Sequence record: SRR31147125_13840
Reading direction: 5' to 3' (one strand)
Length of the DNA: 33,972 nt
Below, in pieces: positions 13,028-32,793 of the stretch. The notes beneath the pieces were generated by a model. That model made no database searches and had not been told where the DNA came from. It saw nothing but the letters and a program-made list of their open reading frames with translations. The position numbers and the translations under genes are program-made. The first letter of the stretch is position 1, and each line of letters starts with the position of its first letter.

Positions 13028-13038
13028 GAGGATAACAT

Positions 13039-13611: not shown

Positions 13612-13618
13612 GAGGTAT

Positions 13619-14704: not shown

Positions 14705-14709
14705 GATAG

Positions 14710-14735
14710 AAAAGCGCCAATTGGTGCTTTTTTTT
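14710..14735 (+). terminator. Intrinsic terminator
   Basis: AAAAGCGCC-AATT-GGTGC followed by T8. Confidence 0.85.
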
Positions 14736-14795
14736 ATCATAAACATAAAATATATGATAAAGTTAATCGCAGGGGGATGTAAAAGGAGTATTAAA

Positions 14796-15644
14796 ATGAA
14801 AACAGCTATTATTACAGATTCAGCATCGAATTTACAACCGGATTTTATTGAAAAGCATGACAATTTATTTGTCATACCGCTACTTATTGTTTGTGATGGT
14901 GTTAATTACAGAGATCAAATTGAGATGACAGCAGAAGAAGTCTATAATCAAATTGATAATCACAAATTATCAACAAGTCTACCAGATACTAATGATTTAT
15001 TAAAAGTGGTAGAAGAGATTAAAAAAGAAGGATATACAGATATATTATGCATTAATGTATCTTCAGGATTAAGTGGAACATTTAATGCGTTTCGACTAGT
15101 TTTCGAACATGTAGAAGATATTAACATCACACACTATGATTCATTAACAATTGGTGGTGGACTTGGTTATATTGTAGAGTATGCATTAGAATTAGTCGCA
15201 AAAAATGAAAATCCAAAAGATATCTTACCAAAACTTAATCACTTAAGATATGAAGATAGTCTATCGTTATATACCATTGGAACACTTAAGTATTTAAGAA
15301 GAGGTGGTCGTATTGGACGAGTTGAAGGAACTATAGGTGATCTTCTTCATCTTAAACCAGTCATTGGTATGAATGATGAAGGCGTATATGTCACAGTGGC
15401 AAAAGCATTTGGTATTAAACGTTCATTACTATTGATGAAAGAGCACATTGTCAATAAGTTTAAAAAAGATCTTGTTGATTTAACCATTCATTATGGTAGA
15501 GGAAAAGAGATTGCTTTAGTGCTTGCAAGTAGAATTAAAAAAGATTTAAACATTAGAACATTGACATTATCACCACTTACACCTGTACTTGGTATACACG
15601 CAGGTCCTGAAATGTTTTCATATGTTGCAAGACGTATTAAATAA
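14796..15644 (+). CDS. degV: DegV/FakB-family fatty-acid-binding protein
   Basis: MKTAIITDS, STSLP, SSGLSGT, YLRRGGRIG, LGIHAGP; AAAGGAG RBS supports ATG 14796. Confidence 0.92.
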   Translation: MKTAIITDSASNLQPDFIEKHDNLFVIPLLIVCDGVNYRDQIEMTAEEVYNQIDNHKLSTSLPDTNDLLKVVEEIKKEGYTDILCINVSSGLSGTFNAFRLVFEHVEDINITHYDSLTIGGGLGYIVEYALELVAKNENPKDILPKLNHLRYEDSLSLYTIGTLKYLRRGGRIGRVEGTIGDLLHLKPVIGMNDEGVYVTVAKAFGIKRSLLLMKEHIVNKFKKDLVDLTIHYGRGKEIALVLASRIKKDLNIRTLTLSPLTPVLGIHAGPEMFSYVARRIK

Positions 15645-15657
15645 ATATAGACCATGT

Positions 15658-15683
15658 AAAAAAGCACCCAAGGTGCTTTTTTT
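15658..15683 (+). terminator. Intrinsic terminator
   Basis: A6-GCACC-CAA-GGTGC-T7. Confidence 0.85.
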
Positions 15684-15747
15684 GTATATGTTTTTTTTAG
15701 TATTTAATGATATACTAAAAGAAAACAAGTGATTTTAAGGGAATAAC

Positions 15748-16182
15748 ATGGATAAAAAACATATGATATATATGTTAATATTTTTCGTTGCAAGTATGAT
15801 GATATTAATCATTTTTGTGCCTAACAAAAGTAATCCAAATCTGGTTAATGAAGCAAACGATCAAATAGTGTTTGGATTTAGACGATTATATGATGCATAT
15901 GATGATGAAATGTATGAGTTTTCAAGTGTAACCATATATGAATATAATGGTGAAACTTTTGTTGCTATTGCGTATGATGTGATATCGGATGATTCTTTAA
16001 TTTTAGAAGACTTATATATTAAAATTAATGATAATCCACCTAGTTATTATTTTAAGACAACTGAAGATTTAGTACGTAATATATTACGTGTTGAGCAGTT
16101 TAATCAAGCACAAGAAAATTATAGTTCTAAGTATGATTTAACATCAGATGAAATAGAAATGTATCGGAGCATATATGGTTAA
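15748..16182 (+). CDS. Membrane-anchored hypothetical protein
   Basis: Single N-terminal TM; AAGGGA RBS. Confidence 0.7.
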   Translation: MDKKHMIYMLIFFVASMMILIIFVPNKSNPNLVNEANDQIVFGFRRLYDAYDDEMYEFSSVTIYEYNGETFVAIAYDVISDDSLILEDLYIKINDNPPSYYFKTTEDLVRNILRVEQFNQAQENYSSKYDLTSDEIEMYRSIYG

Positions 16183-16630
16183 TATGAAAGAAATACAAAT
16201 AGAAGATCAAGAAACTAGTGATATATTAAGATTATCTAAATGCTGGGAAATAGAGCAAAACGCTTATGGGTATGTAGCAAATACTATAAATGACTTAAAA
16301 GACCACAAGATGTTTATCATTAAAGATGATAAACATCTTTTTGGATATCTTTTAGGACATGTTTATGTCAATGATAAAAAAGTATCTGCATTAGCATATC
16401 AAAGTGAAGTTTTTGAAATTGATGAAATCTATATAGAGAAATCATATCGTTCAAAAGGATATGGTATGCAATTATTTCAAAAGGTTGAACAAATCATGTC
16501 AAACAAAGTATCCTACATAGTGTTATCAAGCTCAAATAAAGATAGTAAACGTATATTAAAATTTTATCAAGATAACATGAATATGCGTATTTGGTCTACA
16601 AGGCTATTTAAAAAAACTAGAAAAATGTGA
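16175..16630 (+). CDS. GNAT-family acetyltransferase
   Basis: IDEIYIEKSYRSKGYG acetyl-CoA motif A; LKFY. Confidence 0.85.
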   Translation: MVNMKEIQIEDQETSDILRLSKCWEIEQNAYGYVANTINDLKDHKMFIIKDDKHLFGYLLGHVYVNDKKVSALAYQSEVFEIDEIYIEKSYRSKGYGMQLFQKVEQIMSNKVSYIVLSSSNKDSKRILKFYQDNMNMRIWSTRLFKKTRKM

Positions 16631-16634
16631 TTTC

Positions 16635-16771
16635 TTGTATAAGGTCATATATTATGGTAATATAAGTATGCTTCTTATGAATGAGTGTAAAAGGTGAGGA
16701 GTTATAGTTAAGTCATGTATAAACATTAACTTGTTAAAGCGTTGTCTAGCTAAAATAGACAACGCTTTTTT
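16635..16771 (+). promoter_or_regulatory. Promoter and 5' leader with an internal terminator (attenuator) upstream of the DEAD-box helicase
   Basis: TTGTAT(16635)-17 bp-TAATAT(16658) with extended TG; AAAGCGTTGTCTA-GCTAAAA-TAGACAACGCTTT followed by Ts at 16736-16771. Confidence 0.7.
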
Positions 16772-16811
16772 GTTGGACTTTTTCATTCAAATTTAAACAT
16801 AAGGAGAAATA

Positions 16812-18122
16812 ATGAATTTTAAATCATTAGGGATCATTGATCCCATATTACAAGCTTTAGAAGCAAAAGGGTATGTTGAACCAACACCTATTCAAGAACA
16901 GGCTATTCCTGTTTTAATTGACCAAAAAGATATGTTAGCAAGTGCACAGACAGGTACAGGTAAAACTGCATCTTTTTCGATTCCGATTATTCAAGGATTA
17001 TATGAAAATCCAAGTCGCACAAGACCGAGAGTCATTCGTGCATTAGTGCTTGCACCTACGAGAGAGTTAGCAGAACAAATTAAAGATAGTTTTAGACTAT
17101 ATAGCAAAGGCATGGATTTAAAAATCGATGTCATTTATGGTGGCGTTAAACAACATAAGCAAGAAATCTCAATTAGAAGAGGACTTGATGTGTTAGTAGC
17201 AACACCAGGACGTTTAATTGATTTAATGAATCAAGGGATTGTAAGATTAAATATGGTTAAGTATTTTGTCTTAGATGAAGCAGACCGTATGCTTGATATG
17301 GGTTTTATCAGAGATGTTAGAAAAATAGAAGCCAAATTAAAAAAAGAAAGACAAACTATGCTCTTTTCTGCAACTATGCCAAAAGAGATATTAGGGTTAG
17401 CCAATGAGTTATTAAATGACCCTGTACGTATTGAAATTACACCACCAGAGATGATGATTGATAAAATTGATCAATCTGTATATTATGTGGCTAAATCTAA
17501 AAAAACAGATTTACTCATTGATTTATTAGTCAATCCACATATGCGAAGAGTCTTAGTATTTACACGAACAAAAAATGGAGCAAATCGTTTAGTTAAAGGA
17601 TTATTAGCATATGGTGTTAAGTGTGATGCTATTCATGGGAATAAATCTCAAAATCAAAGAACAAAAGCGTTGGCTAATTTTAAAAATAATAAATTAAGAG
17701 TGTTGGTTGCAACTGATATTGCAGCAAGAGGTATTGATGTTGATGATTTAACACATGTGATTAATTATGATTTACCAGAAACACCAGAAACATATGTACA
17801 TAGAATAGGTAGAACTGGTAGAGCAGGACTTAGTGGTATTGCTATATCTTTTTGTTCACAGGAGGAATCTCATTTATTACAAGCTATACATAAGCATAAT
17901 AAGATGATGATACCACTTGTTAAAAAACAACCTTTCCATATTGAAATACGTTTTGGGCAAACAAAAAACGAAGTAAAACAATTAAAAGGGAAAAGTGGAC
18001 AAAGAGGAAGAAAGAATCAAACAAGCAAGAATAAAAGAATGTCTAATAAGCAATATAGTAAAAATACAAATAAGAACTCTAAATCTAATAATTTTAGATC
18101 AAGTAGAAGTAAGAAAAGATAA
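16812..18122 (+). CDS. DEAD-box RNA helicase (RhlE-like)
   Basis: AQTGTGKT, PTRELA, DEAD, SAT, HRIGRTGR; basic disordered tail. Confidence 0.97.
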   Translation: MNFKSLGIIDPILQALEAKGYVEPTPIQEQAIPVLIDQKDMLASAQTGTGKTASFSIPIIQGLYENPSRTRPRVIRALVLAPTRELAEQIKDSFRLYSKGMDLKIDVIYGGVKQHKQEISIRRGLDVLVATPGRLIDLMNQGIVRLNMVKYFVLDEADRMLDMGFIRDVRKIEAKLKKERQTMLFSATMPKEILGLANELLNDPVRIEITPPEMMIDKIDQSVYYVAKSKKTDLLIDLLVNPHMRRVLVFTRTKNGANRLVKGLLAYGVKCDAIHGNKSQNQRTKALANFKNNKLRVLVATDIAARGIDVDDLTHVINYDLPETPETYVHRIGRTGRAGLSGIAISFCSQEESHLLQAIHKHNKMMIPLVKKQPFHIEIRFGQTKNEVKQLKGKSGQRGRKNQTSKNKRMSNKQYSKNTNKNSKSNNFRSSRSKKR

Positions 18123-18193
18123 ACTGTAATAAAGTTTAAAAATATTTTGTGGTATTGAAAAAAATATGTATAATTAAGATAAGGCAGATTGAT

Positions 18194-18256
18194 AAAGCAA
18201 CTTGGGGAATGATTGCACTTATATGACGATAAAACGACATTTAGGTGTCGTTTTTT
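18194..18256 (+). promoter_or_regulatory. Conserved GGGGAATG leader / attenuator, copy A
   Basis: TATAAT 18169; GCAAC-TTGGGGAAT-GATTGC hairpin; terminator AAAACGACAT-TTAG-GTGTCGTTTTTT; homologous to the copies at 28548 and 32199. Confidence 0.8.
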
Positions 18257-18275
18257 AGTGTATTTAGGAGGAATT

Positions 18276-21200
18276 ATGAAAAATTGGATAAAAAAGAGAA
18301 AAATAAAAAACAAACAAGTGAAATTGACACAACCGAATAATTATGGAAATAGTATTGAAGCTGATTTTTTAAAAAATGCTGTTAAACAATCAGCTAAAAA
18401 TATTGGGGTAATTGGCCCCAATGGTTCAGGGAAGAGTAGCATAATTCAATCATTTTTGAAATCATTCAAGGATAAATATAGAGTTGTTTCAGTTTCTTCA
18501 AATCCTAGTAAACAAGACAAATCTGAAAATAATGTTGGGCAAACAATAAAACATTATGAGCAAAATATATTACAACAGTTATTATTATCAGGTGCACCAT
18601 CAAAGTTTATTCATTCAAAAATTCAAAGAATCCCAAGCAAGAAGGAGCGATATCATCGTATCATAGTAGGTATTTTTATATATGGGTTGGTATGTTCATT
18701 ATGTGTATATTTAATAAATAAATACTTTAATGACTTTATATCAAATATTTTAAGGAACTCGGAAAACGAAATATCAATACCAGAAACATCATTTATTAAT
18801 GATATTTTTAGTTTCCTTTCTAATAATAAAAGTTATATACTCTTTGGGTTTTCAGCATTGTTTATTGTGATATTGCTGAATTCAATATATAAGATAATAA
18901 AAATGATGTCAGTCACTAGACTTAAAGTCGGCGGTATGGAAATCGAAAGTAAAGATTTGAAAAACGCATTGATAGATAGGTTTACTAAAGAACTGATATA
19001 TTACATCAAAACAGCAAAAATTAAAGTAATTGTTTTCGAAGATTTAGATAGGATAATTCAAAAAGATTCTACACTACAAGACGGATCAAAATCTAAATCA
19101 ACACAAAAAAATGATTTTCAATCAACGCAAGAAATCTTATATAATTTAAAAGAGTTGAATGAAGTGCTTAATAAACAAATGAATTGTAATGTTACATTTA
19201 TATATGCACTTAGTAATAAAATTTTAAAGAACTTAAATACGCAAAGCAAATTTTTTGATTATGTACTATCTGTTAGTAATGAAAGTCTGAAAACTCCAAT
19301 GATTAAAGAAATAAGAAAAATTTTACAGTTGAATGATTTTGATTCAACAGATAACCTTAGATTTATCGAAACTATAATAAGTTTAGTAGGACATGATATG
19401 AGAAGTCTGATATTTACTAGAAATGAATACATTTATTTACAGCGAAAGTATAATATAAATATAGAAAAAGATTCTGAAAAAAGAGAACTACTTGCAATAT
19501 CTTTATATAGGATGAAGTTTCCGGAAGACTTTAATAACATAAACAACGAAGAAAGTGTCTTTTATAACATAGTAGAAAAAACAAAAGATATTTCTAATAA
19601 AACATCTATTTATCGAGCAGGAAAAGATATAGACTATTATTTATTTAATGAAAAAATACATTTCGAATCAAATACATCTCAGAGTGAGGTGTTTAAGTTT
19701 TTAAAAACGTTGATTATAAATAAAATTTTCACAAGTGAAACATATACATTGATATTAAATTTATTTTCAAATGGGAATGACTCTATAATTGATAAAATTA
19801 ATAGAGGTGAATTATTAGCCATTGATAAGGATATTGACGATCCTGGATACATTATTAAAAAAACATATCCAAAATCCTATAAGAATGTAGATATATTTAA
19901 TTTTGCATTGTTCACATTCATGTTTGACAATGAAGATAGTGGATATAATGAATATTTATTCTATTATAAGAAATCATTGTCAAAAAAATTCAAATATCAA
20001 ATGAAATCGCTAATTTAATTTATAATTTTTATTTTAATGAAGAACATACCAAAATTCAAATTTATTTATATCATAGTGAATATTCATCATTTCTAGAATA
20101 TCTTAGATATAACGAAAATGCTGTGTGGAATTTTTTAGCTGGGTGTGAAGTTGAAGAAATAGTTACAAACAAAAAAGCTGAACTATTAAACATCATTGCA
20201 GACACTGTTAATAATGTAACTGGAGTTGAAAAATCAAATAACAAAGACAATGTACTGGATGTGTTGTCAAAACTAGAGATAAAATTTAAAGAATTAGAAA
20301 AAGTAACTGAAAAAAATGCAGTATTTAATAAGCACTTAAGCGATAATTTTTATGAAGTTAATGAAAAGAATCTTGATACAATAGCACAATATTTTAATAA
20401 ATCAATTTCAGATGGAGACTTTTATACATTTATTTCATCTGAAAACATTAATGTATACAGTTATATAAAAAAGAATTTAGAAAGATACTTGGCAATTCTC
20501 ATCAATCGAAATGTGAAGTTAAACGAAAGCATGGATAAATTAAATGAATTATACTCATGTGCCAAAGAAAACAATAACACTAATGCCTTATTTGAATTAG
20601 TTGAAAATAGGTCGTTATCTGAATTCGATGAAATGGATGACGAATTAATTCAAAGTCTAATCGATAGTGATAAGTATATTCAAACAGTTGAAGTCTACGA
20701 ACGTATATTTAGTACTCAATACAAAACAGAAACTTATAGTAAACTTTTAGACATCAAACTAAATGCTGAGGAGTTTGAAGATTTCGATGCCTTAATTAAT
20801 TGCATTAATGATCATAAAATCAATATAGATACATATAATTCTATAATATTAGAAAATTTCAACACATTAACAAACTTTAAGTACATATTGACACATTTGA
20901 AATTAGGCAATATAGAGTTTAATTCACTTCAGAGAGATAATAAAGAACACATCACACGGAATAAGAATAAAAGAATTTTAGATTATTTACTTACTCATTT
21001 GAACGTGTCTGATGAAGTGATTCACTTGATAAATATTAATGACATTTTCGAGTTTAATTTATCAGACAATGCGAAAATTAATTACTTGAACAACTTAGAA
21101 GATTTAGAAGATCTTGAATCTTTTAATTATGTAAACGAACTTGCTGTTTTGTTAAATGTTGAATATACTAAAGACACTTGCAATATTAGTGAAAACGTGC

Positions 21201-21475
21201 TAGAAAAATTATTAGATTTAAAATTCACAAATAGCGATTTGATTAAACTTTTATACAAATACTCCAATCACGTATCTAAAAATTTTTTAATTACTAAATT
21301 AAGTAGTACAAACAACAAATGGTCCGGTTTTTTCAATAATGGTGTTATAAGTAAAGGTGTTAAATATTTCGAAGATATTGAAGACCATGAACAGTGGCTA
21401 ATAAAACTTGAAAAAATTGGAATAGTGAAAAAAACTGGAAGAAAAGATCCAAGAATAAAAAAATATATAGATTAA
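18276..21475 (+). pseudogene. KAP/YobI-type membrane P-loop NTPase (about 1066 aa if restored), split by a -1 frameshift
   Basis: AGGAGG and ATG 18276; Walker A GPNGSGKSS, two TM helices, Walker B VIVFEDLDR, KFFDYVL. One more A in A7 (19982-19988) fuses it to the 20123..21475 ORF with no stops. Confidence 0.8.
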
Positions 21476-21552
21476 AAAGTAAGTGACAGGAAATTCTTGT
21501 AATTTGTTTTATGCTATAATATTTATGTGAATTCTAGATCGGGGGTTCTTTC

Positions 21553-24293
21553 ATGAATTATATACAAACTGAAGCAGCACTAGAAAATGAAATGATAAAA
21601 TCTTTAGAGGGGATGAGTTACGAACGTATATCTATACCTGATGAAGAAACATTATTACAAAACTTTAAAAATAAAATATCAGAACACAATTTATCAACTG
21701 AACTTAATAATCAACCACTCTCAGATACTGAGTTTGAAAGATTATTAAATGAAATGCTAGGTAAAGGTGTTTTTAATAGTGCATATAACTTAAGACAAAA
21801 GCAAACCATCACTAGAGATGATGGTTCTATTGCTTATATTGAGTTAATCAATAAAAAAGAATGGTGTAAAAATATATTTCAAGTTACAAACCAAATCACA
21901 GTGAATGCAAGACGTGTTAATCGTTATGATGTTACTATATTAATTAATGGTCTTCCTCTTGTTCAGATTGAACTAAAAGAAGAGGCATGGAACTTAAACA
22001 AGCATTTAACCAAATCAATCGATATAAATCCGAATCATATACGGGTTTATTTAAGTATGTACAAATATTTGTCATATCAAATGGTGTATCAACAAAGTAT
22101 ATATCAAATGATGAAACAAGATTAAATTATAATTTTGCGTTTAAATGGACGGATGATAAAAACAATGATATTCAAAATATTGCTGAATTCACAAGAACTT
22201 TTTTATCACCTTGTCAAATAGCTAAAACTATTTCAAGATATATGATTACCAATAAGTTTGATAAAAAACTTATGGTGATGCGTCCTTATCAAATTTATGC
22301 AGTTGAAAAATTAATGGATTGTGCAGAAAATACTAAACAAAATGCATATGTATGGCATACAACGGGATCTGGTAAAACTTTAACATCGTTTAAACTCGCA
22401 CAATTACTATCAGAATTATCTGATGTAGAAAAAGTGATTTTTTTAGTTGATAGAAAAGACTTAAATGCTCAAACTGTTGAAGAGTTCAACAAATTTCAAA
22501 TTGATGATATTTCAGCAGCGAAAAATACATATGATTTAACGAAGCAATTTAATGATGAGAGTATTCCTTTAATTGTAGCAACCATTCAAAAAATGAATAA
22601 TGCTTTGAAAAAACCAGGATATATGAAAAAAATGGAGAAATTCAAAGAGAAACGCATTGTGTTTATTATTGATGAATGCCATCGATCTCAATTTGGAGAC
22701 ATGCATAAAGTCATTAAAAAATACTTTAACCAAGCACAATACTTTGGATTTACTGGGACTCCAATTTTTAGTGAATATGCTGGCAATGGATTAGCAACAG
22801 GTAATCTATTTAACAAACAAGTCCATAATTATTTAATTAAAGATGGTATTCGTGATAAAAATGTTCTAGGATTTAAAGTAGATTATTTTAAAACCATGTC
22901 AATGAGTGCTCATGCAACTGATGATGATGTTGAAAACATTGATAAAGAAGAAGTTCTAGAATCTGATGAAAGAGCAATGCTTGTCGTAGATCAAGTGCTA
23001 AAAATTCATCCGACAAAAACACATCAACAAGCATATAATGCTATATTTGTAGCATCTAATATACCGATGGCAGTTAAATATTATAATTTTTTCAAAAAAG
23101 TTGATCATGATTTAACGATTGCTTCAATCTTTAGTTTTTCACCAAATGCTGATACATCAAAAGAAGATAAACTTCAAAGAGATATGTTAGAAGATATTAT
23201 CAAAGATTATAATCATAGATTTCAAACCAATTATTCAACCGATACTTATAGTAATTATTTTAGTGATCTTTCGAAACGATTTAAGCGTAAAGAGATTGAT
23301 ATACTAATTGTTGTTAATATGTTTTTAACAGGATATGATTCTAAACTACTTAATACTTTATATATTGATAAAAAACTTAAAATGCATACGTTGATTCAAG
23401 CTTTTTCAAGAACGAATCGTATACATACTGAAAAGAAAATGTTTGGTAATATCGTTTCTTTTGCAACACATAAAGCGGATGTTGAAGAAGCTATTAAAGT
23501 ATATAGTGATACAGATAATACTGATGTTGTTGTATTAGAGACTTATCAAACATATGTTGACCAAGCGAAAAAGAAAATCGATGAATTATTAAGTATAGTA
23601 CCTACTGTTGCAGATGTTGATAGGTTAGAAAGTGAGACTGCACAAAAAGAATTTATTATTGCATATCGTTCTTTAGTGCATGTGATAACTGCTTTACAGA
23701 ATTTCATAGAGTTTGAGTTTGATGAATCAGAAATTGGTATGTCTAGACAACGTTATGAAGATTATCGTTCGAAGTATCTTGATTTAAACAGACGCGTGTC
23801 ACAAACAGATAAAGCATCAATTCTAGTTGATGTGAGTTTTGATATGGAATTAGTGTCAACCGATATTATTAATGTTGATTACATATTAGAATTGCTTGCA
23901 CAGATTAATTATGGTGATCATAAGCAAAGGGATCTTGGCTTAGAACATTTAAAGAAAGTCCTTGATAGAAACGACAGTAAAGAACTTCATAGTAAAATTG
24001 AATTGTTAAGAAGATTCATTGAGAAAGAAGTGCCTACTATTTATGATGGTAGTACTGTAGAAGAAAGATATGAAGAATTTCTTGAAAAAGAAAAAAATAA
24101 TGTTATTTATCAGATGAGTGAAAAAGTTCATGTTGGTGAACTTGTTCTTAAGGAAATGATAAATGCTTATCATTACACAAGTATTATTCCTAATGATGTA
24201 ATTAGAGAACATGTTAAAGGAAAATATTTAGAGAAAAACAAAGCGATCAATGAAATCAAAGATTTTATTGTAGAGGTATCTGAATTGTATTAA
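21553..24293 (+). pseudogene. hsdR: Type I R-M restriction subunit, split by a -1 frameshift
   Basis: RYDVTILINGLPLVQIELK; one more A at A4 (21975-21978) restores ELKRRGMELKQAFNQI; HTTGSGKT, DECHRS, FTGTP, QAFSRTNR. Confidence 0.93.
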
Positions 24294-24308
24294 AATCATG
24301 CTATTTAA

Positions 24309-24356
24309 AAAAATATCAAATTTAGTCTTGACTAGGTTTGATATTTTTGTTATGAT
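24309..24356 (+). promoter_or_regulatory. Inverted repeat (likely hsdR terminator) overlapping the promoter of the half-hsdS-hsdM-hsdS operon
   Basis: 19 bp arms, 17/19 matching (24309-24327 and 24330-24348); TTGACT(24328)-17 bp-TATGAT(24351) with extended TG. Confidence 0.75.
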
Positions 24357-24399
24357 GGAATTGTAATGATATTTCATAAAATAGCAAAGGAGGGATTAT

Positions 24400-24987
24400 A
24401 TGGAATTGATTCAAGAAATGACACACGGTTTTTTTGTTAATCGCCTTAAGCGCAAAGGTGATGTTTGGAAAACAATGAGAGTCCTTCATATGCAAGACGT
24501 TGCATATTTTACAGGTGATCAAGTTGTAAAACCAGAAAAAAGCGAAATGAAAATTTATGAATCAGATAAAGATGCTATAGTTGTAGGTCATGTTGGTGAT
24601 GTTGTATTAGGAAAAACCATGGGGAGTGCTATGGTCATTGATGAAGCATTTGATGGATGTTTAATCAATTCAAATTTTGTATTGATTAAAATTGATAAAA
24701 AATGTTCACCATACTTTTTAGCATGGTATATGAATGAAAGTAGTGCATTTAAAAGATATCTTTTTGTTAATCAGCAAGGATCAACGTCTACAAAAGTATT
24801 ATCAATTACAGATTTAAAGGCTTTTAACTATAAAAGTATAGATTATGTTAATGAAAATTTAATTGGTGAAATTTATAAAAAACAAGTACAAAGAAAAAGA
24901 TTATTAGTAGAGCAAGAACAATTAGAAATAAAACTTATGAACCAACACTTTAAAATAAGTAGAAAGAAGGAAAATGAAAATGAATAA
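24400..24987 (+). CDS. Single-TRD (half) HsdS-like protein
   Basis: GDVVL, LINSNFVLIK, PYFLAWYMN, QGST..LSITDLK and a C-terminal coiled coil; overlaps the hsdM start. Confidence 0.7.
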   Translation: MELIQEMTHGFFVNRLKRKGDVWKTMRVLHMQDVAYFTGDQVVKPEKSEMKIYESDKDAIVVGHVGDVVLGKTMGSAMVIDEAFDGCLINSNFVLIKIDKKCSPYFLAWYMNESSAFKRYLFVNQQGSTSTKVLSITDLKAFNYKSIDYVNENLIGEIYKKQVQRKRLLVEQEQLEIKLMNQHFKISRKKENENE

Positions 24988-26533
24988 ACAATCAGAACAA
25001 CAAGCAACACTACATAAACAATTATGGGCAATGGCTAACGAATTAAGAGGGAACATGGATGCCAGCGAATTTAAAAATTATATATTAACGATTATATTTT
25101 ACAGATACTTAAGTGAAAATATTGAAAAAATTGTTAGTGATTTTCTTAAAGAAGATCACATGACATATGAACAAGCATGGGAAATACCAGAGTATAGAAA
25201 AGCATTAATTGATGACTTAACAAATAGTAGTGATATCGGTTATTTAATTGAGCCAGAATATTTATATGCATCACTTGTTAAAAAGATTAAAACAAATAGT
25301 TTTGATATTGCTATGTTAAGTAAAGCAATTAATAAACTTAGTGAATCTACATTAGGACAATCGTCACAAGAAGATTTTGAAAATCTATTTGATGATTTAG
25401 ATTTAAACTCTTCACGTTTAGGTAGAGGAGAAACTGAAAGATCATTATTGATGGGAAAGATTATTTTAAAAGTTAATGAAATTGATTTTATGCATGGTGA
25501 TAGTGAAATTGATGTATTAGGTGATGCATACGAATACCTTATTGGTAAGTTTGCAGCAAATGCTGGAAAGAAGGCGGGGGAGTATTACACGCCTCAAGCA
25601 GTGTCAGAGTTACTTGCAAGAATTGTTACTTTAGGCAAGAAAGAAATCAAGAGTGTCTATGATCCTACATGTGGATCAGGATCACTATTATTACGTATTA
25701 GTAAACATGCTAAAGTCGTTAAATATTTCGGTCAAGAAAAAACACCAACGACTTATAATTTAGCAAGAATGAATATGATGTTACATAAAGTAACATTTGA
25801 TAGATTTAATATTTACCAAGAAGATACTTTAGAAAGACCTTGTCCTGCTCATGAAGGATTAAAATTTGAAGCAGTAGTTGCAAATCCGCCTTATAGTGCG
25901 AAATGGAGTGCTGATGCTAAGTTTGAAAATGATGATAGATTTTCTGGTTATGGGAAGCTCGCACCTAAATCTAAAGCGGATTACGCATTTGTTCAACACA
26001 TGATTCATCATTTAGATGATGATGGTACGATGGCAGTTGTATTGCCACATGGTGTATTGTTTAGAGGTGGAGCAGAAGCTGTGATTAGAAAATATCTTAT
26101 TGATAATAAGAATTATTTAGATGCAGTCTTAGGACTGCCTGCAAATATATTCTTTGGAACATCAATTCCTACGACTGTTTTAGTGTTTAAAAAATGTAGA
26201 GAAAACAAAGACATATTATTTATTGATGCATCTAAAGGCTTTAAAAAAGAAAAAAACCAAAATGTATTAATACCTGAATATATTGACAAAATCGTTGATA
26301 CATATAAAGAAAGAAAAACAATTGATAAATATTCATTTTTAGCAAGTCTAAAAGATATAGAAGAAAATGATTACAATTTAAATATTCCAAGATATGTTGA
26401 TACATTTGAAGAAGAAGAACCTGTAGATCTTGATGAAGTGAGAAAGCAATTAAAAGCAGTTGATCAAGAAATCGAAGAAATTACTAAAGAGATTAATACG
26501 TATTTGGATGAATTAGGAGAACCTAGATTGTGA
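24980..26533 (+). CDS. hsdM: Type I R-M m6A methyltransferase
   Basis: LWAMANELRG, GEYYTP, DPTCGSGSLL, NPPY, YNLNIPRYV (alternative start 24974). Confidence 0.97.
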   Translation: MNKQSEQQATLHKQLWAMANELRGNMDASEFKNYILTIIFYRYLSENIEKIVSDFLKEDHMTYEQAWEIPEYRKALIDDLTNSSDIGYLIEPEYLYASLVKKIKTNSFDIAMLSKAINKLSESTLGQSSQEDFENLFDDLDLNSSRLGRGETERSLLMGKIILKVNEIDFMHGDSEIDVLGDAYEYLIGKFAANAGKKAGEYYTPQAVSELLARIVTLGKKEIKSVYDPTCGSGSLLLRISKHAKVVKYFGQEKTPTTYNLARMNMMLHKVTFDRFNIYQEDTLERPCPAHEGLKFEAVVANPPYSAKWSADAKFENDDRFSGYGKLAPKSKADYAFVQHMIHHLDDDGTMAVVLPHGVLFRGGAEAVIRKYLIDNKNYLDAVLGLPANIFFGTSIPTTVLVFKKCRENKDILFIDASKGFKKEKNQNVLIPEYIDKIVDTYKERKTIDKYSFLASLKDIEENDYNLNIPRYVDTFEEEEPVDLDEVRKQLKAVDQEIEEITKEINTYLDELGEPRL

Positions 26534-26546
26534 GGGGGATGTATAG

Positions 26547-27755
26547 ATGGAGAAATTAAGATTTAAGGATGAAAATGGGAGTACATATCCTAAATGGGAA
26601 ACTAAATACTTTTCAGAAACATATTATAAAGCAAAAGAAGGGGGAACACCAAGTACTAAAAACAATAATTACTATTTGGAAGGGAAAATACCTTTTGTTA
26701 AAATAGATGATTTAAAACAAAAATACCTTTTTAATTCAACTTCTTATATTAATGAATTGGGTATTAAAAATTCAAGTGCTTGGAGAATACCAATTAATTC
26801 TTTATTACTATCAAATGGAGCAACAATTGGAGAGTCTTCTATAACAAAACTAGAAGTAACAACTAAGCAAGGAATATTAGGGATAATTCCTAAAATAAAT
26901 GTTGAATTTCTATATTATTTAGTAGCAACACAAAAATTCAAAAAGCTAATAAAGAGAATCACAACAAAAGGTACAATGGATGCGGCTTATATTAAAGACA
27001 TAGCAAACATAAAAGTTGATATTCCATGTGAAAACGAACAAAATAAAATTGCAGATTTTCTTAGTGTTTTTGATTTTAATATTGAGAAGGTTACTCAAAA
27101 AATAGAACAGTTGCAACTACTTAAAAAAGGCTATTTACAAAAAATGTTCCCTAAAAAAGGTGAAAATACTCCAGAAATCAGATTTAATGGATTTACTGAT
27201 GCTTGGGAACAGCGTGAACTAGGAGAGTTGACAGAAATTTACGATGGCACTCATCAAACTCCACAATATACTGATAATGGTGTGATGTTTTTATCAGTTG
27301 AAAATATCACCACTTTAAAGTCTAAAAAGTTTATATCTGAAGAAGCATTTAAAAATGAGTTTAAAATATATCCGGAAAAAAATGACATACTTATGACTAG
27401 AATTGGTGATATAGGAACAGCTAATATTGTAGCCGATAACGAACCCAAAGCATATTATGTTAGTCTCGCTTTACTTAAAAACTCCAAATTAGATCCACAT
27501 TTTCTTATGGAATCCATATCATCAGTAAATGTGAAGAGAGAGATTTGGCATAGAACATTACATATTGCTTTTCCAAAAAAGATTAATAAAAATGAAATCT
27601 CAAAAGTTCAACTCTCTTATCCTAAAAATAAAGTAGAGCAATCTCAAATCGGTAGAACACTTAACCAGTTAGAAAATCTTATCACCCTTCATCAGCGTAA
27701 GCATGAATTGTTGATTAAAATAAAACAAGGTTATATGCAAAGACTGTTCAGCTAA
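26547..27755 (+). CDS. hsdS: Type I R-M specificity subunit (two TRDs)
   Basis: LRFKDENG..YPKWE; EQNKIADF; MFPKKGENTPEIRFNGFTDAWEQR; LITLHQRK. Confidence 0.95.
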   Translation: MEKLRFKDENGSTYPKWETKYFSETYYKAKEGGTPSTKNNNYYLEGKIPFVKIDDLKQKYLFNSTSYINELGIKNSSAWRIPINSLLLSNGATIGESSITKLEVTTKQGILGIIPKINVEFLYYLVATQKFKKLIKRITTKGTMDAAYIKDIANIKVDIPCENEQNKIADFLSVFDFNIEKVTQKIEQLQLLKKGYLQKMFPKKGENTPEIRFNGFTDAWEQRELGELTEIYDGTHQTPQYTDNGVMFLSVENITTLKSKKFISEEAFKNEFKIYPEKNDILMTRIGDIGTANIVADNEPKAYYVSLALLKNSKLDPHFLMESISSVNVKREIWHRTLHIAFPKKINKNEISKVQLSYPKNKVEQSQIGRTLNQLENLITLHQRKHELLIKIKQGYMQRLFS

Positions 27756-27778
27756 AGATAAAAATATTAGGTGCCAAT

Positions 27779-28468
27779 ATGAATTTAGATAATATAGAAA
27801 ACAAATTGAATCAAATAGAGAACATTGAAGATGATCAGAAGTTTATTATTTATTTAATAATGAAAAAATGTACGGTTCTTTTAAGACAAGCTAAAAATCT
27901 CATTGATCAACATCGAGGTACTTTTATTTCTCCTCTATTAAGACAAGTTTTTGAATATACTATTATAACTGCGGGGTTTGATGGATTTATTACACTTGAT
28001 GATTTTATTAATCACCAAAAAAATGCCAAACTAGTAAAAAAAATTAGAGATAAGTTTGATGATTTCATTATAAAAAATCATGGCCAGCAACACAAAAACA
28101 CATTTAAAGCATATACAAAAATGATTTATAGTGTTTTAAGTGAGTATACACATTCAAATATAGATAATCTAGTTAGATTTTCACTTGATGAGTATTGTGA
28201 TAATCAAAAAATGTTAAGCGAAGAAGCTAATGTACTCTATACAATGGTTGAACAACTATTCTTCATACTAACAAACGAGTATTTAGATACTAATATTGAG
28301 ATTAAAGAAATTGATACAAATGATTTGTTAAATCTAATAAAAAAATCTAGAAGTATAAATGATATAAGTGATCCAGTTCTTAAACATCTTTTAGAAATAA
28401 AAGGAATAGATCAAAGATATAAAAATAAGACGAAGAAAATCATAAATCAACTGAAACATTGTAAATAA
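27779..28468 (+). CDS. DUF5677-like / HEPN-like helical protein
   Basis: LLRQVFE and YSVLSEYTH motif pair; AGGTG RBS; family assigned by motif recognition only. Confidence 0.55.
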   Translation: MNLDNIENKLNQIENIEDDQKFIIYLIMKKCTVLLRQAKNLIDQHRGTFISPLLRQVFEYTIITAGFDGFITLDDFINHQKNAKLVKKIRDKFDDFIIKNHGQQHKNTFKAYTKMIYSVLSEYTHSNIDNLVRFSLDEYCDNQKMLSEEANVLYTMVEQLFFILTNEYLDTNIEIKEIDTNDLLNLIKKSRSINDISDPVLKHLLEIKGIDQRYKNKTKKIINQLKHCK

Positions 28469-28502
28469 AAACTTTTAATTCCATATTTAAAACATAATAA
28501 AT

Positions 28503-28536
28503 TTGACATCTATAAATATTCATGATCTAATATAAT
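28503..28536 (+). promoter_or_regulatory. Sigma-A promoter
   Basis: TTGACA(28503)-17 bp-TCTAAT(28526) with extended TG; a perfect TATAAT also at 28531. Confidence 0.7.
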
Positions 28537-28547
28537 CAAAGAGATAA

Positions 28548-28626
28548 TAAACAACTTATGATTGTAGCTTAGGGGAATGGATACACTTTGATGTTAAAAG
28601 ACGACATTGTAGTGGCGTCTTTTTTT
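28548..28626 (+). promoter_or_regulatory. Conserved GGGGAATG leader / attenuator, copy B
   Basis: TGTAGCT-TAGGGGAAT-GGATACA hairpin; terminator AAAAGACGACAT-TGTA-GTGGCGTCTTTTTTT. Confidence 0.8.
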
Positions 28627-28650
28627 ACTAAAAATATTAAGGAGTTATAT

Positions 28651-30516
28651 ATGAAATGGAAATTCACTGAAATCAATCACATTGAAAAACTAACATTTGA
28701 TCAAACACTAGAAAGGTTTTATAATCAAGGAATTAGTGGATTAGTAAGAGAAAACATACAAAATTCATTGGATGCAAGATTAGATAAAAACAAACCAATT
28801 AAAGTAATTATCAAAACAGGCGAACATGATATGAATGATGTTCCGGGGTCTAATGAAATAGTAAATCATATTTCATCTTTAAAAGGTGGAAATGAATATA
28901 CTAGAGAAATCATAACTGATATGAAAAATCATATATCAGATCATAAATTTAACTATATCTCTTTTGAAGACACGAACACAAAAGGATTAACAGGATCAAA
29001 ATACGGACAGCAAGCTGATTCTAAATATTCATATGGTGCATATGCATATGCCACTGGTTATCATTTTGTAGATAGCGATGATCAAGTTGAAAAAATAAGA
29101 GGTGGTTCGCATGGAGTTGGTAAAATAGCATCTAATGCAGCTTCAATGTTTAACACGATGTTTTTTGCAAATCTTGATGAGACGGGACACAACACATTAG
29201 GTGGCACTATTCAACTTATAGAGCACACAATGAATGGTGATACTTATCGTTCGACAGGTTATTTTACTAATATGAATGATGAACAACGATTTATACCTTA
29301 TGTTAATGAAAACTACGCTAATATATTTGAAAAGAAAACGAGAGGTTTAAAAATTATTATACCGTTTTTAAAAGAGAAATTTAATGATAAAGAAGAAATA
29401 ATGAGAACTATATGTGATAGTTTTCTTTTAGCCATATTAAATAAAATATTAGTTGTACAAATCAATGATTCTATGATTGATCATGAAAATATTGAAGATA
29501 TTATATCTTCAACTATTTTTGATGATCATGAAATAGATTTACAATACTATACAAGAGCTTATTTAAAAACTCTAGAAACCGAACCACTAATAATCGAAAT
29601 ACCAAAAATAACTGAACCTTTTCATCAATTTAATTTATATTTAAGATATGATGAATCAATTGTCAAAGGTCGAACAGGTGTATTTAGATCTATTGGTATG
29701 AAAATAGAAGACAAATTAATTTCAGGGTATAGTAGAAAACCATATAATGCTATATTAGTACCACTTGAAGCGGATGGTGATCAATTTTTAAAATCGCTAG
29801 AAAATGAATCACATACTAAATTACAACATAGTCATTTTAGAAAAGAAGATTTATCTAGAGATGCTAAAAGATTCATCAATAAATTAAGTGAAGTTATAGG
29901 CCATCTCATTGATCAAAAAATTGATCAACAAAATCCTTCAGAAGGTATTATGGATACTTCTGATGTTTTATATGAACTTGACGATGCATTTAAACACTTT
30001 GCTGAAAAGAAATATTCTAAAGTAAATATTGGTATGGGAAAAACATCAAAAACACTAATAAAGACATCTGATACAGATGAAACTGGATTAACAGCTCGCA
30101 CAAAGAAAAACAAAGGATCAGGAAAAGGCACTAAATTCAAAAAAGTTAAGAAAACATTTGATGGACATAAGTATACATATTACTATGAAATTCCAAGTAG
30201 CAAAATCAAAAGACTTTCTGGGGATAAAGAAGATTATATAGAAATTAATATAGAAGATCAAGACATTGTTGAACAATACAACCTTGTTAATGTATATATA
30301 ACCTTGGTTGATGGTAATGGTAAAGAATATGTTAATGAATATAATTTAAAGTCAATATATCATCAAATACTAGATTTGAGCAGTAAAGAATTCAAAGATA
30401 ATACCAATAATGGTATATTAAACGTTTCAATAAAAAGTAATAAAATCAAGTTAAATTTATATCGATCAGATATAGATAAAGAATTATCAAAATTGAAATT
30501 TTACTTGGAGGCATAA
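28651..30516 (+). CDS. GHKL (MORC/MutL/Hsp90-like) ATPase, 621 aa
   Basis: RENIQNSLDA, EDTNTKGLTG, GGSHGVGK, TRG boxes; AAGGAG RBS supports ATG 28651 rather than 28588. Confidence 0.8.
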   Translation: MKWKFTEINHIEKLTFDQTLERFYNQGISGLVRENIQNSLDARLDKNKPIKVIIKTGEHDMNDVPGSNEIVNHISSLKGGNEYTREIITDMKNHISDHKFNYISFEDTNTKGLTGSKYGQQADSKYSYGAYAYATGYHFVDSDDQVEKIRGGSHGVGKIASNAASMFNTMFFANLDETGHNTLGGTIQLIEHTMNGDTYRSTGYFTNMNDEQRFIPYVNENYANIFEKKTRGLKIIIPFLKEKFNDKEEIMRTICDSFLLAILNKILVVQINDSMIDHENIEDIISSTIFDDHEIDLQYYTRAYLKTLETEPLIIEIPKITEPFHQFNLYLRYDESIVKGRTGVFRSIGMKIEDKLISGYSRKPYNAILVPLEADGDQFLKSLENESHTKLQHSHFRKEDLSRDAKRFINKLSEVIGHLIDQKIDQQNPSEGIMDTSDVLYELDDAFKHFAEKKYSKVNIGMGKTSKTLIKTSDTDETGLTARTKKNKGSGKGTKFKKVKKTFDGHKYTYYYEIPSSKIKRLSGDKEDYIEINIEDQDIVEQYNLVNVYITLVDGNGKEYVNEYNLKSIYHQILDLSSKEFKDNTNNGILNVSIKSNKIKLNLYRSDIDKELSKLKFYLEA

Positions 30517-30517
30517 C

Positions 30518-31381
30518 ATGATTTATGACAAAGAAGTAAGTTTTCCATATCCTATACTATCTAGATTAACTGAAGACTATCCTCATTCTAAATTTGAAAT
30601 AGTTACACATCTCTATGAAGAAGACCAGTCATATAGAATCGAAATTGATTATGACTTAAACAGTTCTTACTTAAAGAGTTTATTGATGAGTCATAAAGCA
30701 GATCTAAAAGCTATCGTAAGCTCTAAAGATAGCAAAATTTATACGTTAGATCATAATGATCAAACACAAACGATTAGGATTGAAAAAAAACGATTAGCGC
30801 TTAACAATGCGTTAAAAATACAATTGTTTATTGTATCAACAACTGATATTAATTTCAGATATAACGCTGATCTTGATCAGTTTTATAGAAAGCACAAAAA
30901 GAATATCAATGTAGGAAGGAACAATATCTTAGCATTTTCCAATGTAGAAAAATATAATGGAGATATAAGAAAACCTTTTGATATTATCGAAACAAAAGTT
31001 GATGAACGTTTGAAATCAGAGATTAAGATTGATATAGGAACGGAATTGATTACAATCACTTTCAAAGATAAAAAATATCAATTCTTGGAATTTGCAAATA
31101 AAAGACCTTTAAAAAACCATTATATTTATATGGCCTTACAAAAAGTATTAATGATTATGGTTAAAGAAATTTCGCAAAAAGAAGAACAAATCATAGTATC
31201 AAATGTTAATGAAGATGACCAGACAGAATTATATAGTAAAATGCTTGGCCTCCTTAAAAATAAAGGTGTATCTGTGGTAGACTTTGAAAACATTGATGAA
31301 GTTATATATCAAATAACTGATCATATTATTGATAAACATTATTTCGGTATATTAAAGGAAAGTGACCATTATGATAGTTAG
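30518..31381 (+). CDS. Hypothetical protein, second gene of the GHKL operon
   Basis: GGAGG RBS, starts 1 nt after the previous stop; N-terminal SFPYPIL...DY. Confidence 0.85.
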   Translation: MIYDKEVSFPYPILSRLTEDYPHSKFEIVTHLYEEDQSYRIEIDYDLNSSYLKSLLMSHKADLKAIVSSKDSKIYTLDHNDQTQTIRIEKKRLALNNALKIQLFIVSTTDINFRYNADLDQFYRKHKKNINVGRNNILAFSNVEKYNGDIRKPFDIIETKVDERLKSEIKIDIGTELITITFKDKKYQFLEFANKRPLKNHYIYMALQKVLMIMVKEISQKEEQIIVSNVNEDDQTELYSKMLGLLKNKGVSVVDFENIDEVIYQITDHIIDKHYFGILKESDHYDS

Positions 31382-32111
31382 ATTATTAAAGAAAGAATAT
31401 ATTCAAAGTGATTTATTTTATAATGATTTTAAGAATGATAAGGTGAAACAATTGAACCATTTTTCTTCAGAAAGTTATGAAATAGATCAATCGTATATTC
31501 CATTTTTTCCGATTTATATTAGTTACAGTGATGATCATAAGAGATATAAGAATTACTTAGAAGCTATTCATGTGATGATTGATTATATTGATAGTTTAGA
31601 TAGAACGATTGTTATGAATCATGATTTTTGGATATCTTTGATGGTCGTTAACTATCGTGATGAACTTATTAATAAATATCCACCTATTGTTAAAAAAAGA
31701 ACTTCTTTTGATAATATTATATTAAAAAAATTTAATTGGGAAAATTATGTTTATAAAATGCTATTAATGGCCCAATTTTTAGTTGATCATATTTATCCAT
31801 CTGAATACGATAACTACATTAGATTAATGAGTGATAATATGGATGTGTATAATTATATGATTAAATACCCAGTTTATCGAAATGATATATTTGTTTTAAG
31901 AGTTTTAAAGATTATAGATAAGTATGATATATCATCTGTTTTAAAGAAAAAAATACAATCTAGATATAGAGATGATAAAGATTTAAGAGTTGGTAGGAAA
32001 GTAATTTTCGAGTTTAATAAAAACTATCCTATCATTATTCCTCATATGATGAGTGATGAAGAGTTTGAGGTCCAGTTTATGAAGTTTGTGAAAATGTATG
32101 CAAATGAGTAG
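31371..32111 (+). CDS. Hypothetical protein, third gene of the GHKL operon (possibly divergent DUF6339-like)
   Basis: ATG 31371 overlaps the previous stop; NHDFWISL..YP, VIFEFNK; family guess is weak. Confidence 0.75.
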   Translation: MIVRLLKKEYIQSDLFYNDFKNDKVKQLNHFSSESYEIDQSYIPFFPIYISYSDDHKRYKNYLEAIHVMIDYIDSLDRTIVMNHDFWISLMVVNYRDELINKYPPIVKKRTSFDNIILKKFNWENYVYKMLLMAQFLVDHIYPSEYDNYIRLMSDNMDVYNYMIKYPVYRNDIFVLRVLKIIDKYDISSVLKKKIQSRYRDDKDLRVGRKVIFEFNKNYPIIIPHMMSDEEFEVQFMKFVKMYANE

Positions 32112-32198
32112 TAAAAGTGTCATCACGTATTAATGATTCGAGTGATTGCATATAGAAAATTATGGTGACATACTATATAATAAGATTATAAGTAAATC

Positions 32199-32271
32199 AA
32201 ACAACTAGAGCTGCATTTTGGGGAATGATTGTACTAACATGTTATAAAGCGGCATTTTAGTCCGCTTTTTT
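32199..32271 (+). promoter_or_regulatory. Conserved GGGGAATG leader / attenuator, copy C
   Basis: TATAAT 32176; TGCA-TTTTGGGGAATGAT-TGTA hairpin; terminator AAAGCGG-CATTTTAGT-CCGCTTTTTT. Confidence 0.8.
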
Positions 32272-32312
32272 GTATATTAATTCAATGATATAAAAATGAA
32301 AGGATAAACTCT

Positions 32313-32476
32313 ATGAGATTATATTATAATCCTGATTTATTATTTAAACATACACCTAAAGAGAAAAGAGAAATCTATTTAATAAGATTGTTGATTTGAG
32401 TAAAGCTATTGACAAAGAGAATATGATTAATCGAAAATTAATAAATAAAATATTATTAAAAAAGGGGGATAAATAA
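32313..32476 (+). pseudogene. Probable 54-aa basic small protein interrupted by a -1 frameshift
   Basis: AAAGGA RBS and ATG 32313 (MRLYYNPDLLFKHTPKEKREIY...). The -1 frame FNKIVDLSKAIDKENMINRKLINKILLKKGDK ends at TAA 32474-32476, abutting the next ATG. Confidence 0.5.
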
Positions 32477-32793
32477 ATGGAAAAGATAAACAAAAATTTT
32501 ATGGACGTTGCTGAGGTTGGCGATATAATTGAACTGGTAGAATTAACGACAAATAAAATCATAAAACGAAGACTAATCAGAGTTTCTCAACGAGTAGTAC
32601 CAATAATTATAAATGCGGTTAATTCAAATTATGATAAGTATAAATTAGAATCGACACATTTAACAAATCCTGAAACAGAAATAAATATAGAATCAGAAAT
32701 TGGAAAAAAATAAATGGAAAAAAAATAGGAGAAACATTTGCATTTCATCACAAAGAGTATCAGATTATTAATTTAATAAAAAACAGAGAATAA
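32477..32793 (+). pseudogene. Stand-alone GreA/GreB C-terminal-domain-like protein (about 105 aa if restored), frameshifted
   Basis: AEVGDIIEL...; one more A in A7 (32704-32710) gives INIESEIGKKINGKKIGETFAF..EYQIINL, matching the Gre-CTD pattern ISxxSPxGxALxGKxxGD. Confidence 0.6.

Follow-up and report, generated by a model that had tools for sequence, protein, structure and literature searches.

Terminator-bearing leader RNAs ahead of defence-type gene cassettes in uncultured Acholeplasmataceae, and a candidate C-loop small RNA partner

In the plasmids pT181, pIP501, and pAMbeta1, an abundant small RNA contacts a loop in the leader of the rep gene, and loop–loop pairing decides whether the terminator acts. 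Here we describe a family of short RNA leaders that also carry a terminator and that stand ahead of unrelated, defence-type genes. Three copies (A, B, and C) lie in a 33,972-nt stretch of DNA from sequence record SRR31147125_13840, referred to below as the window, and related genomes that carry the family also encode a candidate small RNA (sRNA) partner. Transcription attenuation driven by antisense RNA in Gram-positive plasmids (PMC3753616) is one of the nearest described arrangements that we found. Both cases have a terminator-bearing leader before the gene and a leader hairpin with an exposed loop, although here the sRNA partner is a candidate. The plasmid regulator is a cis-encoded, fully complementary countertranscript, whereas our candidate is encoded elsewhere, matches the leader over 9–10 nt, and would face many unrelated cassettes. 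The alternative helix known as the ‘pre-emptor’ in the plasmid systems has no counterpart in the leader family that covaries above shuffles.

The candidate itself resembles the sRNAs with C-rich loops, which include 6C of Actinobacteria, LhrC of Listeria, RsaE/RoxS, and the hairpins of RNAIII. According to one account 6C uses its C-rich loops to bind several mRNAs (PMC6486639), and another has Staphylococcus aureus RNAIII binding two distant regions of the coa mRNA (PMC2837412). Our candidate likewise has pyrimidine- or C-rich loops on its two hairpins and pyrimidines in its linker. The target proposed here is not the ribosome-binding site (RBS) but a hairpin loop 60–75 nt upstream of it, ahead of the terminator. 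Riboswitches and protein-dependent attenuators share with the leader the order of promoter, structured leader, terminator, and RBS, and possibly an alternative helix that overlaps the terminator. The leader differs from riboswitches in that it has no Rfam match, a very small fold, and a helix without covariation above shuffles, and in that it precedes unrelated defence genes rather than the genes of one pathway. In gene arrangement the loci recall integrons. Integron cassettes are mostly promoterless, have attC at the 3′ end, and lie beside an integrase gene. Like them, the loci described here hold unrelated, exchangeable cassettes lined up at a hotspot, with a short conserved structured element at the boundary of each; unlike them, the cassette has its own promoter and a 5′ leader, and the thirty-nine window frames scanned include no integrase, only an IS3-type rve domain.

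How costly or toxic defence systems are kept quiet, and how new ones are brought under host control, is a largely open question to which the known answers are DNA-binding repressors. Accounts of BrxR/CapW (a WYL-domain protein) and of RptR describe one protein regulator shared by several defence systems of an island (PMC9122589, PMC12255303). These repressors act at DNA operators, whereas here an RNA leader stands on each such cassette and no regulator gene of that kind was seen beside the cassettes. The literature covered describes protein regulators of defence islands and C-rich-loop sRNAs, and no leader of this sort. A leader with a terminator is of a known kind, but this family is outside Rfam, its place before many unrelated defence systems is unusual, and it has a candidate sRNA partner that would act in trans.

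The original prediction had placed three homologous elements just before RBSs in the window, and their positions, alignment, and model scores agree with it. All three lie on the + strand and can be aligned with one another (63 per cent mean column identity, over somewhat wider stretches than the elements themselves). Each consists of a promoter followed by a leader of about 80 nt, which ends 18 nt (A), 24 nt (B), or 39 nt (C) before the next start codon. The shared layout begins with a -10 box and an (A/G)CAACT box, continues with a 4-bp stem (P1) around GGGGAAUG(A/G) and with CACU and AUG boxes, and closes with a terminator hairpin that has a conserved top and loop, CGACAUUNUAGGUG, and is followed by a T-run. 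The exact word GGGGAATGNNTNNACT occurs in the window at these three sites only, and with up to two mismatches it has four matches against 1.27 expected from shuffles. A covariance model (CM) of the leader, R1, scores A at 64.5, B at 91.1, and C at 76.9 bits. The next-best match in the window, at 10658–10727 (25.2 bits), is an ordinary terminator and not a further copy.

In copy A an extended -10 box, TGTATAAT, lies at 18167–18174 (TATAAT at 18169–18174), followed by the leader at 18193–18258 with the 5′ box AAAGCAACT. Its P1 pairs GCAA (18197–18200) with TTGC (18213–18216) around the G-rich loop GGGGAATGA (18204–18212), and its terminator pairs 18231–18239 with 18246–18254 at -8.0 kcal/mol, the T-run covering 18251–18256. 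Copy B has its -10 box TATAAT at 28531–28536 and its leader at 28548–28627, with the box AACAACT at 28550–28556; P1 pairs TGTA (28563–28566) with TACA (28582–28585) around GGGGAATGG (28572–28580), and the terminator (28598–28606 with 28613–28621) runs into T residues at 28620–28626. For copy C the corresponding features are TATAAT at 32176–32181, a leader at 32197–32274 with AACAACT at 32200–32206, P1 formed by TGCA (32212–32215) and TGTA (32230–32233) around GGGGAATGA (32220–32228), a terminator at 32247–32253 and 32262–32268, and a T-run at 32266–32271. The promoters were read from the sequence, and a -10-like box stands about 40–50 nt 5′ of GGGG in all sixteen copies now known (see below). 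Copy C lacks one G that is present after 32261 in contigs of two other public runs (32260–32262); with the extra G restored, the top of its terminator has the AGUG found elsewhere in the family.

A scan of the whole window with Rfam 15 at gathering thresholds gave no match for the leader, and the best permissive matches were far below threshold (STnc240 at 18.4 bits against 55, GibS at 17.6 against 115, both with E > 1). Together with the intrinsic-terminator hairpin between promoter and RBS, this agrees with the earlier description of a cis-acting leader that works as RNA and belongs to no recognised family. A leader peptide was considered and rejected: reading frames from the two conserved AUGs vary in length and all stop, and the spacing from GGGG to AUG is 2 and about 15 nt.

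A search of related genomes by CM had been proposed along with the three elements, and the family does recur. R1 found sixteen places in nine of 151 Acholeplasmataceae genomes, of which thirteen, in six genomes (G001, G023, G062, G071, G079, and G093), were judged by eye to be real. The other three (L022–L024) are plain terminators or the end of a tRNA. With the three window copies, the family thus has sixteen members. One genus of ten species accounts for five of the six genomes, and its other five species carry no copies; in G071, G079, and G062 the copies are grouped within 10–30 kb, as they are in the window. Among 185,579 species genomes, a word scan returned nine stretches, one of them real and again in an Acholeplasmataceae metagenome-assembled genome. 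A sample of 151 genomes from across the order brought in no further leader-bearing genome. Word scans of metagenome contigs (thirteen stretches) and a first viral scan (one) yielded chance hits throughout, as judged by eye and by the absence of any CM match, and two looser viral scans (seventy-one and fourteen stretches) contained no CM match; blastn against phage and plasmid records found no leader. As an RNA family the leader is new and narrowly distributed, being confined to a few uncultured Acholeplasmataceae, which are bacteria without a cell wall.

Folded singly, copies A, B, and C do no better than shuffled sequences (z = -1.58, -0.73, and -0.70), so support for the fold comes from the homologues. 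In the model-fitted alignment of the sixteen copies, P1 and the terminator taken together are 96.2 per cent paired, and their covariation of 0.293 (0.170 when shuffled) was reached by none of 500 shuffles. The terminator is an 8-bp stem, 94.5–96.9 per cent paired, with compensatory changes in three of its eight pairs; no shuffle of 500 reached its covariation, either on the model-fitted alignment or on an independent MAFFT alignment. Its energy ranges from -4.6 to -12.5 kcal/mol, and T-runs of 5–7 follow in most copies, with interruptions in four. The hairpin thus has the stability, the U-run, and the compensatory changes of an intrinsic terminator. Two oligo-dT RNA runs labelled as another organism yielded no reads from the stretch and have no bearing on its transcription. 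P1 is 94.6 per cent paired, with one pair changing from C-G to U-A in three copies and with some G-U pairs, and 10/500 shuffles reach its score. On its own it is of marginal stability (-1.4 to +5.1 kcal/mol), as would be expected if the hairpin depends on a partner.

The third stem of the original prediction, in which CACUNNNNAUG pairs with CAUUNUAGGUG, fared differently from the other two. The terminator is upheld by clear covariation and P1 by modest covariation, whereas the third stem can pair in 84.2 per cent of cells (77.5 per cent on MAFFT) but covaries no better than shuffled partners do (127/500 reach it on the model-fitted alignment, 150/500 on MAFFT). The argument that its sequences differ while pairing is kept therefore loses its force, and the three-state scheme of anti-antiterminator, antiterminator, and terminator comes down to a 2-nt overlap of P1 with this stem.

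These results bear on the switch as first proposed, an attenuator run by a host or phage protein, or by a small ligand or metabolite, that reads the P1 loop, the CACU...AUG boxes, and CAUUNUAGGUG and shifts the balance between third helix and terminator. About 45 nt are conserved beyond the needs of a plain terminator. When the nascent RNA is cut before the 3′ strand of the terminator, folding puts the third helix into the minimum-energy structure of eight of the sixteen copies (counted from the folds), and because of this a terminator/antiterminator switch keeps its place among the possible readings. P1 abuts the helix, so that the two could stack into a small aptamer-like fold, and one compensatory change is seen in the second G001 copy (locus L041), where AUG has become UUG and CAUU has become CAAU. 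Apart from its shuffle-level covariation, however, the helix is weaker than the terminator in every copy (-5.6 to +3.9 kcal/mol), and two of its inner positions are unpaired in 8–10 of the sixteen. Nor do the fetched loci have a regulator gene in common, and no Rfam riboswitch matches. We consider a switch of this kind unlikely, though still worth weighing. CsrA, which like RsmA binds GGA in hairpin loops, was examined as a binder of the loop and rejected, as PF02599 is found in none of the ten genomes of the genus while control genomes were positive. Two further pairings were dropped after inspection by eye: a kissing interaction of the P1 loop with the loop of the terminator (AAUG with CAUU), which is not kept in L037, L038, and L043, and an extension of P1 by pairs within its loop, which is inconsistent across copies.

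Each of the sixteen copies has the same orientation as the gene that follows it, with 12–144 nt between the end of the CM match and the start codon of that gene. Defence genes usually make up a small share of a genome, and this serves as our yardstick for enrichment in place of a computed background rate. Tabulated as the original prediction had suggested, the downstream genes are nearly always of defence type. In nine of the sixteen copies a PADLOC defence model matches one of the first two genes downstream at E ≤ 1e-10. The defence-type cassettes comprise Tmn/YobI; PDC-M33A/B; two DdmD-like proteins; a HATPase protein followed by a Mokosh-like helicase; a CBASS cyclase followed by Cap15; a ThsB-like TIR protein with PDC-M50A; a HIRAN protein (PDC-M03B) followed by a DdmD-like protein; and PDC-S46 followed by a Mokosh-like helicase. 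The other seven copies precede a NYN nuclease, a DUF6119 gene, an LRR_5 protein, an unknown 666-aa protein, a duplicated unit (two copies), and the short frames after copy C. The duplicated unit, in G071, is made up of a leader, an 87-aa gene, a racemase-like gene, and two more genes. It is found in near-exact form at L034:4350–6971 and L036:1239–3860, each time after an EamA transporter gene, and is the sole leader-headed unit that is not defence-like.

A hotspot flanked by genes for a DUF4097 protein and a DEAD-box helicase contains no cassette in G062, a leader with DUF6119 in G001, and a leader with the unrelated 666-aa gene in G079. Because its contents differ among these genomes, promoter, leader, and gene travel as one unit. 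The defence island of the window also varies between strains. Ordinary genes fill bases 1–18122 and the island begins at 18123; in contigs of two other public runs, depth drops from about 50 on either flank to 3–20 over 18128–32791, and in one contig of run X6 position 18122, where the DEAD-box helicase gene ends, is linked directly to 32946. In most cells of those samples the island is absent or replaced by another.

Such exchange is what one would expect if the leader were a constitutive attenuator or insulator that doubles as a recombination handle, giving each cassette its own promoter and a leaky stop that damps toxic genes, with no sensing involved. It would block read-through from the cassette upstream, and the conserved stretch of about 130 bp would let homologous recombination swap cassettes. 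Near-identical leaders do precede unrelated genes, no other terminator-like site on the + strand parts the window cassettes, and the several interrupted T-runs suggest stops that leak. A plain promoter with a terminator, however, would not preserve a 9-nt loop across species while the P1 stem covaries, nor the sequence of the terminator loop. No recombinase adjoins the cassettes, and the one mobile element seen, of the IS3 family, is 14 kb away. We regard this account as doubtful.

Exchangeable cassettes would also fit a site that acts as DNA, either a repressor operator or a recombinase attachment site at an integron-like cassette boundary, and the TGCA ... TGCA boxes can be read as repeats. 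Where the P1 arms differ, however, they are inverted rather than direct (TGTA/TACA, GTAA/TTAC), and the G-U pairs between them (TGTG/TACA, TGCA/TGTA) make sense only in RNA. Arm spacing varies from 18 to 21 nt, the thirty-nine window frames contain no tyrosine or serine recombinase in a Pfam scan, and the element lies 5′ of genes with a promoter of its own, unlike attC. A DNA-level site is thus very improbable.

The original prediction had listed a ‘UUCCCC antisense RNA’ among possible effectors, and the related genomes contain a concrete candidate, a conserved sRNA whose loop complements that of P1. The word TCATTCCCC, the complement of the P1 loop, has thirty matches in the five leader-bearing genomes of the genus, against five for a backwards control. 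By our own count ten of the thirty are the leaders themselves on the opposite strand, while five lie in the terminator loop of the sRNA. The latter is a conserved stand-alone gene of about 85 nt with a near-consensus promoter, two hairpins, and three pyrimidine-rich single-stranded stretches, namely the loop of the first hairpin (CUCACCUUUUUUGA), a linker (UUUCCUUC), and the 16-nt loop of the terminator hairpin (UUCAUUCCCCCCCAAG). It is this last loop that is complementary to the leader P1 loop, GGGGAAUGA. The hairpins covary, with compensatory changes in four pairs and a score that none of 500 shuffles reached. The gene is present in all five of these genomes (G001, G062, G071, G079, and G093), encoded elsewhere in the chromosome and away from the leaders. 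Its loci in the genomes examined are L089:1536–1620 and L093:1512–1595 on the + strand, and L090:1500–1585, L091:1503–1587, L092:1500–1585, L094:1505–1587, and L095:1499–1585 on the - strand.

At least nine contiguous Watson–Crick pairs with the sRNA loop can form in twelve of the sixteen leaders; copy B has eight, or ten when G-U pairs are counted. For the leaders that pair well, a shuffled sRNA loop matches equally well in 0–11 of 1,000 trials per leader. When whole molecules were paired with duplexfold, shuffled sequences scored like the sRNA and leader. A model of the sRNA (R3) matches 25 of the 151 Acholeplasmataceae genomes, and homologues whose loop is ACAUCCCCCCC are found in other genera. 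Five genomes with the ACAUCCCCCCC loop have no matching G-loop partners, and five of their six GGGGGGATGT matches are the sRNA genes themselves, so the long loop match is specific to the leader-bearing clade. For the sRNA, eight loci gave no gathering-level match in Rfam (6C, RF01066, reached 22.7 bits against 47, and LhrC, RF00616, 19.9 against 110), and the sRNA is no member of the 6C or LhrC family.

The G-rich word GGGG(GGG)AAUGAG is not confined to the leaders. It also forms the loop of intergenic terminator hairpins in G001, G079, and G062 (L066 at about 1480–1530; L067 and L068 at about 1485–1525), which are possible further targets of the C-loop sRNA. One of these hairpins follows an unknown 462-aa gene, and in the other two genomes the hairpin lies between ruvX-DUF1292 and a SPFH/Band 7 gene. 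By eye, several other occurrences of the word are ribosome-binding regions. Given these occurrences in RBS regions and other terminator loops, and the use of G-runs as RBSs, the sRNA looks like a general anti-Shine–Dalgarno regulator that the leaders came to match over an unusually long stretch.

The reading that we favour is a model in which the leader is a portable attenuator whose G-rich P1 loop, GGGGAAUGA, docks the C-rich loop, UUCAUUCCCCCCCAAG, of the chromosomal sRNA, and we give it a probability of roughly 40 per cent. It starts from what is observed: an RNA family with two hairpins that stands in front of defence-type genes and, in related genomes, an sRNA complementary to it. The module would comprise a promoter, a leader of about 80 nt with a weak 4-bp P1 that displays the G-rich loop, and an intrinsic terminator just before the RBS. 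Transcription of the cassette must pass this stop signal, hence attenuation. The P1 loop would be the docking site for the terminator loop of an sRNA of the 6C/LhrC/RsaE kind, and loop–loop pairing of 9–10 bp, on the nascent or the finished leader, would determine the amount of cassette mRNA that is completed, translated, or degraded; the pyrimidine linker of the sRNA could also cover the RBS. That the two RNAs meet in the cell and change read-through or stability is our inference. By analogy with antisense-driven attenuation in Gram-positive plasmids, we lean towards repression as the effect of the sRNA.

Several points weigh against docking. The model is drawn from sequence, and the sRNA is known from related genomes, not from the organism that carries copies A–C. 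Because the sixteen leaders are related, their common loop counts as one observation rather than sixteen, and the match is partly post hoc in that the sRNA was found by searching for the complement. Some complementarity would be expected in any case, since C-rich loops pair with any Shine–Dalgarno-like G-word and G-runs are common RBSs. Pairing is poor in three leaders, with seven pairs in L037, six in G023, and five in L038. The variant loop of G023, GGGGGUAAC, is not compensated in the C-loop RNAs of that genome, which match its G-run only, and the complement of the variant, TTACCCCC, has fifteen matches there against thirteen for the control, none of them at an sRNA-like site. Co-occurrence in the genus points towards the pairing, but weakly: of the ten genomes in the genus, five have sRNA and leader, two (G052 and G086) have the sRNA only, three have neither, and none has the leader only (one-sided Fisher p ~0.08). 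Finally, docking gives no reason for the conservation of the terminator's top and loop (CGACAUUUAGGUGUCG) or of the CACU, AUG, and (A/G)CAAC boxes.

The same complementarity could be read the other way round, with the terminated leader itself as the product and read-through as a by-product. It would then be a trans-acting sRNA of about 80 nt, with two to four copies per genome, serving as a sponge for the C-rich sRNA or acting against phage transcripts. The element does run from promoter to terminator with no conserved reading frame, and its loop is complementary to that with which an sRNA, through its seed, would be expected to target G-rich RBSs. Its constant place shortly before a start codon on the same strand favours a role in cis, though, and no copy was found away from a gene start or in the phage, plasmid, and viral collections, so we think a trans-acting product rather improbable.

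The docking model also has a broader form, which we put forward with considerable reserve. One abundant C-loop sRNA may hold many unrelated defence systems in check through loop–loop pairing, such that its loss or titration would free all of them together, for example when a phage shuts off host transcription or degrades host RNA. At least nine kinds of defence-type system come with this conserved leader RNA, and the matching sRNA turns this into a hypothesis that mutations can test. If true, it would be the first case known to us of a cassette-borne RNA leader that links many unrelated defence systems to one sRNA. The cassettes would themselves bring an RNA-based master control for a pool of immune genes, with newly acquired systems wired into an sRNA circuit of the host, and leader and sRNA would offer a small, modular regulator pair for engineering.

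Within the window (29 per cent G+C), the leader does not head every cassette, as had been claimed. The first gene after copy A, at 18276–20018 on the + strand, encodes a 580-aa YobI-like P-loop NTPase (Pfam PF20693, E = 5.7e-42; PADLOC Tmn, E = 1.3e-11), followed by an unknown 450-aa gene that starts at GTG (20123–21475, +) and matches no Pfam or PADLOC family. Type I restriction-modification genes then occupy 21553–27755 (+) without a leader of their own or any R1 match above noise. They comprise an hsdR split at 21987–22125 (HSDR_N, SWI2_SNF2, T1R_D3, and EcoR124_C), an S-like fragment between hsdR and hsdM (24400–24987), hsdM (24974–26533; N6_Mtase, E = 1.7e-109), and hsdS (26547–27755; Methylase_S, E = 8.3e-28), all on the + strand; an unknown 229-aa gene follows. 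The hsdR frameshift lies at a run of four A residues (21975–21978), where contigs of two other public runs have one more A, and the break is either strain-specific or a homopolymer slip in assembly.

Copy B heads a cassette at 28651–32111 on the + strand, made up of PDC-M33A (28651–30516; PADLOC E = 9.1e-52), PDC-M33B (30518–31381; PADLOC E = 3.2e-17), and an unknown 249-aa gene (31362–32111), none with a Pfam family. Copy C precedes short frames only, of 29 codons (32313–32402, +) and 78 aa (32477–32713, +), the latter with a GGGGG RBS at 32464–32468 and no PADLOC or Pfam family. Runs of five G at 21541–21545, 26534–26538, and 32464–32468 lie 8–9 nt 5′ of the starts of hsdR, hsdS, and the 78-aa frame, and G-runs seem to serve as RBSs in the lineage of the window.

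The ordinary genes of 1–18122 encode a GGDEF/HD protein, an IS3-type insertion sequence, a two-component system, a VWA protein, a NYN fragment, a MarR regulator, Nqr/Rnf subunits, DegV, a GNAT protein, and the DEAD-box helicase. The IS3-family element (2798–3948, -) consists of a 110-aa helix-turn-helix OrfA and a 263-aa OrfB with the rve domain at 2798–3589, and relatives of it occur at three places near the G079 hotspot (L031). The NYN-domain fragment (8934–9467, +; 177 aa) covers profile positions 65–144 only, has no leader in front, and is 28 per cent identical to the leader-associated NYN nuclease of G071 (L037:1094–1939). The NqrF-like protein of the window is 84 per cent identical to its G079 counterpart, so the window comes from a fairly close relative. 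The first protein in the list, at 557–2653 (+), combines GGDEF with an HD-GYP-type domain (HD_5), from which the organism probably uses c-di-GMP signalling.

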